DNA of 64,000 bases from a phage: the NCBI GenBank assembly GCA_027337125.1, contig GCA_027337125.1_3057.1, one strand, 5' to 3'. The translations under genes and the position numbers were made by a program. Below, piece after piece: positions 29,550 through 62,976 of the stretch; position 1 is the stretch's first letter, and the number at the start of each line of letters is the position of its first letter. The notes under the pieces are model-generated. The model was not told the DNA's origin. It worked only from the letters and a program-made list of their open reading frames with translations, and searched no databases.

Positions 29550-30376
29550 TGGCTATTTTTCAAATAATTAATGAAAGCACTCCCCAAGTTCCAAAGGTTA
29601 AGCAATCATTAAACGAAAAGAAATGGATTCAGATAGGTCTTGAATACAAAAAGGCCAAAGCAAAAGGAATGACAGGAAAGCAATTTGCTGAAGAAAGAGG
29701 AATCAAATACTCTACGTTTACTTCGGCAATGTCAAAATATGCTTCAGGAATTAAAACGGCTGAAAAGATTCAAAAGCTTGAATCAAAACCAATGAATAAA
29801 CTCAATAAGCAAGAAAGACAACTGCTTATGATAAATTCATTCAGACAAACATTGCGTGATAAAATTCGTAATGAAGGCGCAGCAATTAATAATAAAACCA
29901 GAAAGTGGTTTGCTGAAACTATTAAGCAAGTAAAAGGACATAAAGTTGTTCGCCCGCAGCCGGGACGAATATATGCTTTTGCTTACGATGCTAAACACAA
30001 AGAAACTCTTCCTTATTGGGATAAATTTCCTTTGATAATTTACCTTGGTTTAGGTAAACATAATTTAATGTATGGATTGAACTTGCACTATATTCCACCT
30101 AAAGCTCGTCAACAGTTTCTAGAAGAGCTTTTAAAGCAATATTCAAATACACCTACTATTACTAATAAAACGAAATTAAAAATTGATTGGAGTCAAGTGA
30201 AAGGATTTAGGGGTGCAGACCAAATGATTAAGGCATATATACCCGGTAATATTATGGGTAGCCTTGTTGAAATCGCCCCGAAAGACTGGGCGAACGTTGT
30301 GTTAATGCCACTCCAAAGCTTCTACTCCAAAGGAAAACGTTTCTCTGCAAACAAAGTTTGGAGCAATGTACGATGA
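29549..30376 (+). CDS. 2: DNA end protector protein gp2
   Basis: 275 aa; follows gene 4 with overlapping stop/start. Confidence 0.92.
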
Positions 30377-31032
30377 ATTATGAAAAAATTTATAATTCAC
30401 TAATTGATAGGGCTCGCAATAGAGCCCTTACTGGATATAAAGAAAGACATCATATTATTCCGAAATGTTTAGGCGGTAGTAATGATGCTTCTAACTTGGT
30501 TGATTTAACTCCAGAAGAGCATTATGTTGCACATCAGCTATTAGTAAAAATACACCCAAATTCTTTAAAATTATCTTATGCAGCCATAAAAATGACGGTT
30601 TCAACTAAATATGTTAGGAGAAATAATAAAGTTTATGGTTGGTTAAAAAGAAAACATGCAAATAATATTTCAAATACACAAACTGGACGAAAATATTATA
30701 ATAATGGTAAAAGATGTATAAAATTGCATGATGGAGATATAATTCCTGAGGGATTTATTTTAGGAAGAGGATGGAGTCCGACACAAGGAACAACTCATTC
30801 TAGAAAAAATGACACATTTAAAAACAAAAAGCTTCAATCTGCTTTAGCTAATAAACGGTGGGAAAAAGAAAAGAAAATAATGTTAGATAACTTTGGAGTT
30901 AACACTATTGATGAAGCAAAGAAAATTGTTCTTGATTTAAAATCAACTTGTCATCCAAGATATTGGCGAAAGCCAACTTTAGAAAAATTTCCATTTATGA
31001 CTTCTGCTCGTTTAAGAAGTCTAATAAATTAA
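30373..31032 (+). CDS. Mob-family HNH homing endonuclease (free-standing) between genes 2 and 3
   Basis: [14 protein letters not shown]...[34 protein letters not shown]; ATG overlaps the gene 2 TGA (ATGA). Confidence 0.85.
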
Positions 31033-32432: not shown

Positions 32433-33129
<697 letters not shown>

Positions 33130-33141
33130 TTTCACAAAGTT

Positions 33142-33172
33142 GTTTACACGTTGATGAGGTAGTGATACTATT
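33142..33172 (+). promoter_or_regulatory. T4-type early promoter (GTTTAC -35, TAnnnT -10) upstream of the internal protein gene
   Basis: ttcacaaagttgtttaca ... gatactat; the same upstream cassette recurs at 33497 and 62935. Confidence 0.5.
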
Positions 33173-33201
33173 ATCTCATCAAAATTAATTAGGAAAATAA
33201 A

Positions 33202-33489
33202 ATGAAAACTTTCAAAGAATTTACTTCTACAACTACCCCGGTTTCTACTATTACTGAAGCTACTCTTACTTCTGAAGTTATTAAAGCAAATAAAGGACGA
33301 GAAGGTAAACCAATGATTAGTTTGGTTGATGGCGAAGAAATCAAAGGTACTGTTTACCTAGGTGATGGGTGGTCTGCTAAAAAGGATGGTGCTACAATCA
33401 TTATCTCTCCTGCTGAAGAAACTGCGTTGTTTAAAGCTAAACACATTTCTGCGGCACATCTCAAGATTATTGCTAAAAATCTTTTGTAA
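33202..33489 (+). CDS. Capsid-targeted internal protein (IPI-locus type)
   Basis: 95 aa beginning MKTFKEF, the internal-protein capsid targeting sequence pattern (T4 IPs begin MKTYQEF); located after 57B as ipI is in T4. Confidence 0.75.
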   Translation: MKTFKEFTSTTTPVSTITEATLTSEVIKANKGREGKPMISLVDGEEIKGTVYLGDGWSAKKDGATIIISPAEETALFKAKHISAAHLKIIAKNLL

Positions 33490-33507
33490 TAAATATTTCA
33501 CAAAGTT

Positions 33508-33538
33508 GTTTACAGTAGGGTAGTAGTGTGATACTATT
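33508..33538 (+). promoter_or_regulatory. T4-type early promoter
   Basis: tttcacaaagttgtttaca ... gtgatactat. Confidence 0.5.
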
Positions 33539-33565
33539 ACCCTATCAACTACTGAGGAGAATAAA

Positions 33566-33751
33566 ATGAAACGTTGTGAATTAATTCGAAATGTTGCTAT
33601 TGCAATTTCTGCTTCCGCTTTTAGTTTTTCAATGTTTGCTGGATTTATATGCGGATTATTGACTACAGCAGAAAATGTTTTTTCACTTGTAGTAGCATTT
33701 TTAATTGGTTTAATCGCTATTGTTATGGATAAAATTTCTAAAGGTGAATAA
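33566..33751 (+). CDS. Small hydrophobic membrane protein (hypothetical)
   Basis: 61 aa, two predicted TM segments, GAGG RBS. Confidence 0.6.
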   Translation: MKRCELIRNVAIAISASAFSFSMFAGFICGLLTTAENVFSLVVAFLIGLIAIVMDKISKGE

Positions 33752-34156
33752 ATGAATATTAACGAATATTATGTTTATGCTGGGGATTATGCAAATCCTT
33801 CTCATTTTGAAGGTAATTTAATACCTGATAGAGTTTTTAATACTCCTTTTGAAGCGTGGAGTTGGGTTGAAAGTAAAAATGGATTTTCTTATCGTTATGT
33901 TGAAGTAACTGATTGGAAAGGAACTAAATATCCTAAAGAGCATTATTATGTAGACCCATCTAAAGTAAATTTTCTTTTGTTCGCAGGCGATAATTACTAT
34001 CCTTGCGGTGGATATGATGATTTGATTGCGTATGCTGAAACAGAAGATGAATTACGCCAAATTATTGAAGACAATAAATCAAAACGATTTGGCGATAGTT
34101 TTGACTGGTGGCAAATCGTAAATACCCATACACATACTATTGTTGATAAAGGTTAA
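33752..34156 (+). CDS. Hypothetical protein
   Basis: 134-aa ORF with start abutting the upstream stop. Confidence 0.65.
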   Translation: MNINEYYVYAGDYANPSHFEGNLIPDRVFNTPFEAWSWVESKNGFSYRYVEVTDWKGTKYPKEHYYVDPSKVNFLLFAGDNYYPCGGYDDLIAYAETEDELRQIIEDNKSKRFGDSFDWWQIVNTHTHTIVDKG

Positions 34157-39388: not shown

Positions 39389-40308
<920 letters not shown>

Positions 40309-40455: not shown

Positions 40456-41028
40456 ATGGAATGGCCCAAATTTAGAGATAACAAAATGAAAACATTTTTA
40501 ACTGGTCCTTATCTATCCCTGATGAATGCTTTTACACACCATTCTGATGCTAGAGTAGAAGAAATTTGTAATAGTGGATTTTATGTACCTGATTCGCCAC
40601 ATTTATTTAAAGAATACTGCACACTTCGACTAGATGGTGGACGTCAATCCGGTAAATCAACTGCAGTAACTAATTTTGCCGCTAATTGGTTGTATGACGG
40701 TGGAACAGTTATTGTTCTTTCTAATACTTCAGCTTACGCTAAAATTTCTGCGGGCCACATTAAAAAAGAATTTTCACGCTATTCTAATGATGATATTCGA
40801 TTCCGTTTATTTACTGATTCTGTCCGTAGTTTTGTTGGTAATAGAGGTAGCAAGTTCAGAGGTTTATCGCTTTCGCGGATTTTGTATATAATCGATGAGC
40901 CTGTTAAATCTCCTGATATGGATAAAATTTATGATATTCATATTGAAACTGTGCAACACTGCTGCAATAGTAAATGTTGCATTGGTGGTATTACTCGTCC
41001 ACAGTTTTTCGTAATCGGAATGCAATGA
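40456..41028 (+). CDS. P-loop NTPase-like protein (hypothetical)
   Basis: Walker A GGRQSGKST and Walker B-like ILYIIDE; alternative start at 40486 (MKTFLTG). Confidence 0.65.
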   Translation: MEWPKFRDNKMKTFLTGPYLSLMNAFTHHSDARVEEICNSGFYVPDSPHLFKEYCTLRLDGGRQSGKSTAVTNFAANWLYDGGTVIVLSNTSAYAKISAGHIKKEFSRYSNDDIRFRLFTDSVRSFVGNRGSKFRGLSLSRILYIIDEPVKSPDMDKIYDIHIETVQHCCNSKCCIGGITRPQFFVIGMQ

Positions 41029-62875: not shown

Positions 62876-62946
62876 TCGCATTCTGTATATTACCATTCTA
62901 AGCTATCGTTCCCTTCTTATCATTCCCTAAAAATTTTCACAAAGTT

Positions 62947-62976
62947 GTTTACAAGAAGTTCAAACTGTGGTATTAT
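62947..62976 (+). promoter_or_regulatory. T4-type early promoter
   Basis: ttttcacaaagttgtttaca upstream cassette, 18-nt spacer, -10 tattat. Confidence 0.55.

Follow-up and report, generated by a model that had tools for sequence, protein, structure and literature searches.

Which internal protein does a T4-like phage carry at its ipI locus, and which host nucleases could that allele help it to evade? We addressed this question in a 64,000-nt stretch of phage DNA (hereafter, the window), in which positions 33142–33489 had been flagged as the ipI locus. The source of the window is a T4-like phage (Tequatrovirus), and its + strand runs in reverse orientation with respect to the standard T4 map. 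In nucleotide comparison, the segment 32674–34156 shows 95.4% identity with T4 and 99.1% with Escherichia phage vB_EcoM-UFV13 (UFV13). Genes around the flagged ORF are arranged in the order gene 3, gene 1, 57A, 57B, ipI, trna.4, trna.3, trna.2, eight tRNA genes and segB. The T4T annotation gives the same order, with ipI at the syntenic place.

The flagged ORF begins at 33202 with MKTFKEF, as first reported, and lies on the + strand. It comprises 95 codons plus TAA (33202–33489), and the ORF list, Pfam, PHROG, identity to T4 and synteny all assign it to ipI. Pfam profile PF11634 (IPI_T4, ‘Nuclease inhibitor from bacteriophage T4’) matched the product with an E-value of 2e-53 and a score of 178.7 bits (cut-off 25), residues 20–95 covering profile positions 1–76 of 76, end to end. 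PHROG 4363, an internal virion protein family, matched with an E-value of 3.7e-48. The same residues 20–95 align over the full length of PDB 2JUB chain A (‘Internal protein I’, the mature IPI*), with 75 of 76 positions identical. Compared with T4T IPI, 94 of 95 residues are identical, the sole change being V67I; the propeptide is unchanged at all 19 residues. The UFV13 counterpart is identical at every position (95/95). At the DNA level, the gene differs from that of T4 at six positions, five of which are synonymous. The exact 95-aa product is found on 131 public contigs and carries the name of the IPI internal head protein of phage HY01; V67I is the common form in public data. These comparisons establish the identity of the gene. 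The capsid-targeted internal protein proposed for this locus is IPI itself, and the flagged ORF reads as an ordinary T4-type ipI allele of an already known gene. Two small reverse-strand ORFs overlie ipI (33189–33344 and 33358–33501; 47–51 aa); we found no support for either and take them as spurious.

The start of the interval at 33142 also has an explanation, as it coincides with a T4 early-type promoter. A promoter scan placed this element on the + strand at 33143–33171 (TTTACA-N17-TACTAT, with an extended –10 TG). Seven sites of this form were found in the window, all on the + strand, versus 0.31 expected. A ribosome-binding site, AGGA, is evident in the sequence 7 nt before the ipI ATG (33191–33194, + strand). 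Taken together, these features make it almost certain that the interval 33142–33489 comprises the gene encoding T4 internal protein I (Ip1), along with its ribosome-binding site and early promoter; T4-type processing and GmrSD inhibition are extrapolated from T4.

In T4, an N-terminal targeting sequence brings internal proteins into the prohead, where the prohead protease cleaves them. The capsid-targeting sequence of the ipI product, MKTFKEF (residues 1–7), is the same as that of T4 IPI. Scanning all six frames of the 64-kb window with the pattern MKT[YFW]x[ED][FYL] gave two sites only, both at ORF starts (33202 and 39910). By a rough estimate from residue frequencies, well under 0.1 chance matches are expected in ∼128,000 codon positions, so the two sites are not attributable to chance. 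A gp21-type site downstream of the targeting sequence was also sought, and one is present. The site pattern of gp21 is (L/I)-x-E, which I17-T18-E19|A20 fits. Because the IPI_T4 profile and the 2JUB chain both begin at residue 20, A20 being residue 1 of the mature chain, we place cleavage at ITE19|A20. The predicted products are a propeptide of residues 1–19 (MKTFKEFTSTTTPVSTITE; 33202–33258, + strand), which carries the targeting sequence and would be removed by gp21, and a mature IPI* of 76 aa (33259–33486, + strand), the predicted injected inhibitor of GmrSD. The protease itself is encoded in the window: gene 21, for the prohead serine protease acting on internal proteins, occupies 1488–2126 on the – strand (Pfam Peptidase_S77, E-value 1.5e-111), adjoined by the gp22 scaffold gene (648–1457).

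We then considered the sequences flanking ipI. A 20-nt element, ATTTCACAAAGTTGTTTACA, is found upstream of the gene at 33129–33148 (+ strand), where it overlaps the –35 hexamer, and is repeated exactly and in direct orientation at 33495–33514. The two exact copies thus lie on either side of ipI. Altogether, the window contains three matches to this element, versus 0.02 expected. The same 20 nt precede the ipI locus in T4, UFV13 and JLBYU31. An inverted repeat at 33151–33182 (+ strand; 11-nt arms, 91% complementary) forms a predicted stem-loop across the –10 region upstream of ipI, with a predicted folding energy of –15.5 kcal/mol (z = –5.3). Promoter and repeat scans identified a similar unit downstream (33495–33544, + strand), made up of the second 20-nt copy, a promoter at 33509–33537 and a stem-loop at 33516–33544 that again spans the –10 region (–17.8 kcal/mol, z = –3.3). 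This second stem-loop lacks a T-run and was rejected as an intrinsic terminator; a terminator scan of 32900–33800 found none.

Arrangements of this kind have been described as PeSLs (promoter-early stem-loop), mobile regulatory cassettes found in T4-type phages (Arbiol et al. 2010, PMC2839356; Comeau et al. 2014, PMC4122927). As in those cassettes, an early promoter and a stable stem-loop recur here at either border of a variable gene within a hyperplastic region. A role for PeSLs in modular gene shuffling has been proposed, the first example cited being the T4 IP locus, and the ipI promoter fits TTTACW-N17-TAYWAT, the consensus of PeSL promoters in the PST/T4 pair (PMC4122927). Here, ipI forms a cassette between two near-identical PeSL-like units, of which the downstream one would drive trna.4 and mark the cassette border. 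In relatives, replacement or loss of the whole gene occurs exactly between the repeats, and this comparison suggests recombination at these sites. Elsewhere in the window, a third copy of the 20-nt element with one mismatch is followed by an early-promoter-like site (62934–62976, + strand); this may be another PeSL-type cassette border.

The ipI locus had been described as hypervariable, and comparison with relatives bears this out, since other ip genes, or none, occupy the slot between the same flanks. In JLBYU31 and PYps32T, an upstream unit nearly the same as here is followed by two different genes, each beginning with MKTFKEF and otherwise unrelated to IPI. In Jbel, only one promoter/stem-loop unit stands between these flanks, and the ip gene is absent. 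A homolog of IPI is present in ∼292 of the 802 phage records that match the region, and the identities fall mostly into two groups, at least 95% and 80–90%. Might the flagged ORF, then, be a new ipI-locus allele with another target, evading a different nuclease from T4? Such a reading draws on the occurrence at this locus of unrelated genes with targeting sequences (encoding the 85-aa and 77/99-aa proteins of JLBYU31 and PYps32T) and on the identity bands of IPI homologs, which extend down to ∼83% and ∼50%. Against it stand the 94/95 identity to T4 IPI and the 75/76 identity to the solved IPI*, with a V to I substitution as the sole change, as well as the wide distribution of the identical sequence. 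The 94/95 match leads us to reject a new allele at the sequence level, and we regard this reading as extremely improbable. The T4-type assignment is reinforced by shared context: the locus, the 19-residue propeptide, the position of ITE|A, the 76-aa mature length and the flanking promoter units are all those of T4 IPI (IPI*, PDB 2JUB, PF11634). Relative to T4, this phage's copy differs by the conservative V67I and five synonymous changes, and a functional difference is not expected.

What would this protein do? As the earlier note stated, T4 IPI is injected to counter modification-dependent restriction; it is published as an inhibitor of the type IV enzyme GmrSD (PMC4437046, PMC12373910). Co-expression of IPI* abolishes both the restriction and the toxicity of the CT596 GmrSD, and ∼360 copies of IPI* are ejected per T4 virion (PMC4437046). 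A 2025 study of T4 found that Ip1 blocks the CT596 GmrSD, Ip2 acts against ECOR21/BrxU and Ip3 against ECOR17, with no cross-protection (PMC12373910). From this published T4 work, we infer packaging, injection and GmrSD inhibition for the present phage. The 95-aa precursor would enter the assembling prohead by means of its N-terminal targeting sequence (MKTFKEF...), and gp21, encoded in the same window, would cleave it after I-T-E19. The resulting 76-aa IPI* would be kept in the head, in T4 at ∼360 copies, and ejected with the DNA. In the cell, IPI* would neutralize a GmrSD-type modification-dependent (type IV) nuclease that otherwise cuts glucosyl-hydroxymethylcytosine DNA. The DNA-modification genes (gene 42, a-gt and b-gt) map outside the 64-kb window, so the substrate side of this scheme is assumed from close kinship to T4. 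Because a single conservative difference (V to I) separates this IPI* from that of T4, T4 Ip1 specificity is expected: by analogy, the protein should act on the CT596 GmrSD and Eco94GmrSD, and not on the ECOR21 or ECOR17 variants. Thus, the suggestion that the allele here sets which nucleases the phage evades holds insofar as comparison yields an allele, that of T4; it is not a new one, and its target (CT596/Eco94 GmrSD) was already published.

The surroundings of ipI contain other genes of interest. Directly upstream, 57B (acb1; 32674–33129, + strand) matches the anti-CBASS Acb1 family (Pfam PF23474, E-value 2.6e-60), and hence two counter-defense genes, 57B and ipI, lie side by side. In many phage records, 57B is annotated as ‘RNA ligase’ or hypothetical. 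Further upstream, a 224-aa ORF of the HNH homing-endonuclease type (30358–31032, + strand) separates gene 2 (DNA end protector) from gene 3. T4 and most relatives lack this insertion of ∼660 bp; it is covered by 37 of 513 matching records, phage Elenatom being 99% identical.

The second site with the targeting motif, at 39910, had been put forward as another internal-protein gene after lysozyme. Its targeting motif is indeed present; the gene is not an ordinary ip gene, being instead a deletion-made hybrid of ipX and ipIII. This ORF (39910–40308, + strand) encodes 132 aa and begins 4 bases before the stop of the lysozyme gene (e, 39425–39913); the ORF listing extends it upstream to a TTG at 39895. 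Alignments to phage Nami P0023, Ip3 and PHROG 5341 resolve it into ipX codons 1–31 followed by ipIII codons ∼92–192. Residues 1–31 match the 93-aa ip of phage Nami (P0023) without a difference, and residues 32–132 align with Ip3 residues 92–192. Similarly, residues 15–132 match positions 75–192 of the PHROG 5341 profile, and over residues 18–132 the hybrid is 87.8% identical to T4 Ip3. A precomputed match to PF26861 (Phage_T4_IpIII) covers the retained part. Downstream of the hybrid lies a 190-aa ORF (40456–41028, + strand) with a P-loop-like GGRQSGKST and no meaningful Pfam match, which is conserved in relatives and annotated there as hypothetical.

Each parent is thus represented in part. 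Like ipX, a 93-aa ‘internal head protein’ gene after e in many Tequatrovirus (PHROG 3499; for example, Nami and CHD94UKE2), the hybrid follows e and overlaps the lysozyme stop; unlike ipX, it lacks the C-terminal 62 residues. With T4 Ip3 (IPIII, PF26861), an inhibitor of GmrS1/GmrSD2 of E. coli ECOR17, the hybrid shares the predicted C-terminal domain. It differs in that 31 residues from another ip protein stand in place of the first ∼91 residues of Ip3, which include its targeting sequence and conserved N-terminal half. Full-length members of the Ip3 family have ∼186–193 aa and a conserved N-terminal half, whereas only Ip3 residues ∼92–192 are present here. Ip3's own targeting sequence, MKTY(Q/K)EFIAE, is absent, and that of the hybrid is ipX-derived: equivalent in type, different in origin. 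In a separate comparison, ipX (93-aa ip after lysozyme; positions 986–1267 of locus L003) was found to be 48% identical to one alternative ipI-locus allele of JLBYU31 (positions 1129–1386 of locus L006), indicating that one ip paralog family is present at both ip loci in different phages.

To define the deletion, we used phage CHD94UKE2, where the order is e, ipX, denV, an 84-aa ip-like gene and ipIII. The window aligns with the e–ipIII region of this phage as two segments and lacks the 1,264 bp that separate them in CHD94UKE2. A three-way alignment with CHD94UKE2 ipX and ipIII placed the crossover in a core, AAGCCGA, at 39998–40004 (+ strand), the last ipX-specific base being 39997 and the first ipIII-specific base 40005. 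This core sits within 21 bases that are alike at 19 of 21 positions between ipX and ipIII, and the 21-base segment encodes similar peptides in both parents, one of them LDAAFVKADS. The deletion took out the remainder of ipX, denV, the 84-aa ip-like gene and the first ∼91 codons of ipIII. Consistent with this, tblastn of the 64-kb window found no ipII, denV, full ipX or 84-aa ip. The 84-aa gene of CHD94UKE2, between denV and ipIII (L003, 1752–2006), starts with MYQEFIAE, a targeting sequence without the usual MKT; it may have been mis-started in annotation or be a decayed ip gene.

The hybrid junction is rare. It was found in one piece in none of 50,697 phage records, CT01 and ECO07P3 covering it as two separate pieces. 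The exact hybrid protein is encoded by one contig alone, of 170,267 bp and filed under E. coli (EKH7476144.1). A separate Logan assembly of run SRR22893651, probably built from the same reads, agrees with the window at every one of 4,674 bases spanning the junction. The hybrid is therefore known from one sample only (SRR22893651/EKH7476144.1). We considered an assembly artefact as the origin of the deletion and judged it unlikely, given that the shared core is only 7 nt and that the Logan assembly, probably of the same reads, is identical.

Is the hybrid a working protein, or the scar of a deletion? One possibility, which we hold to be doubtful, is that it is a working injected protein: the ipX targeting sequence would load it into the head, and the C-terminal domain of Ip3 would keep or alter activity against the ECOR17 GmrSD. 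The reading frame is intact, and both the MKTY..EF start and the translational coupling of ipX to e are kept. Moreover, the crossover falls in a segment that is homologous between ipX and ipIII. The ipX-derived targeting sequence contains LSE|S and LNE|A sites. What the hybrid has in common with IPI is confined to the N-terminal 23 residues, and within these LNE|A aligns with ITE|A, which makes packaging and cleavage of the hybrid plausible. Structure prediction also bears on this reading. In AlphaFold2, the confident part of Ip3 is ∼105–192 (pLDDT 74–93), and the model of the hybrid has the same secondary-structure elements. Yet these models are of moderate quality (mean pLDDT 66 for full-length Ip3 and 71 for the hybrid) and derive from shallow alignments. 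Foldseek returned no match of the hybrid model to the PDB at E ≤ 0.001; by this test, the Ip3 fold is without a solved relative. Finally, Ip3 is active in the cytoplasm without its targeting sequence (PMC9391042), and it blocks the ECOR17 GmrSD (PMC12373910). A working protein is harder to reconcile with the conservation of the family. Ip3 has seven cluster representatives among 5.8 billion clusters; every one of them is 186–193 aa long with the conserved N-terminal half (GINKDEW...APIERYLATK...AWEGL), suggesting that this half is probably needed. The occurrence of the hybrid in one sample only also speaks against a working protein.

That uniqueness is what would be expected of a scar left by a recent spontaneous deletion of non-essential genes, with no selected function, and with Ip3 activity and denV UV repair lost. 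We consider a scar of this kind somewhat more likely than not. A 7-nt core within 19/21 similar bases is typical of illegitimate or homeologous recombination, and a search of the 64-kb window turned up neither denV nor ipII. Deletions that eliminate ipIII arise readily in laboratory T4 (PMC9391042). A separate deletion in the same region of ECO07P3 truncates denV and ipIII, leaving 78-aa denV and 81-aa ipIII fragments (L005, 1842–2356), and the e–ipIII interval appears prone to deletions. Nothing stands directly against a scar. The intact frame and targeting sequence might seem to, yet both are expected of a crossover between homologous codons.

What do these results mean for the phage? With T4-type Ip1 present, resistance to GmrSD of the CT596/Eco94 type is predicted, and Ip1 type could be useful for predicting the host range of T4-like phages, for example in therapy cocktails. 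Whichever account of the hybrid applies, this phage is without an intact Ip3, a T4-type Ip2 (at least within the window) and denV, the last lost in the same deletion event. Unless Ip3 activity survives in the hybrid, the phage may consequently be vulnerable to UV and to the GmrSD variants of ECOR21 and ECOR17. The ipI result itself adds little that is new; the ipX::ipIII hybrid matters more. It is conceivable, if rather unlikely, that the hybrid is a natural in-frame ipX/ipIII recombinant, still packaged via ipX targeting and delivering only the C-terminal domain of Ip3. If so, it would be a natural example of how recombination between ip paralogs can rebuild injected anti-restriction proteins, and it would offer a ready-made truncation for learning which half of Ip3 acts against the GmrSD system of ECOR17.
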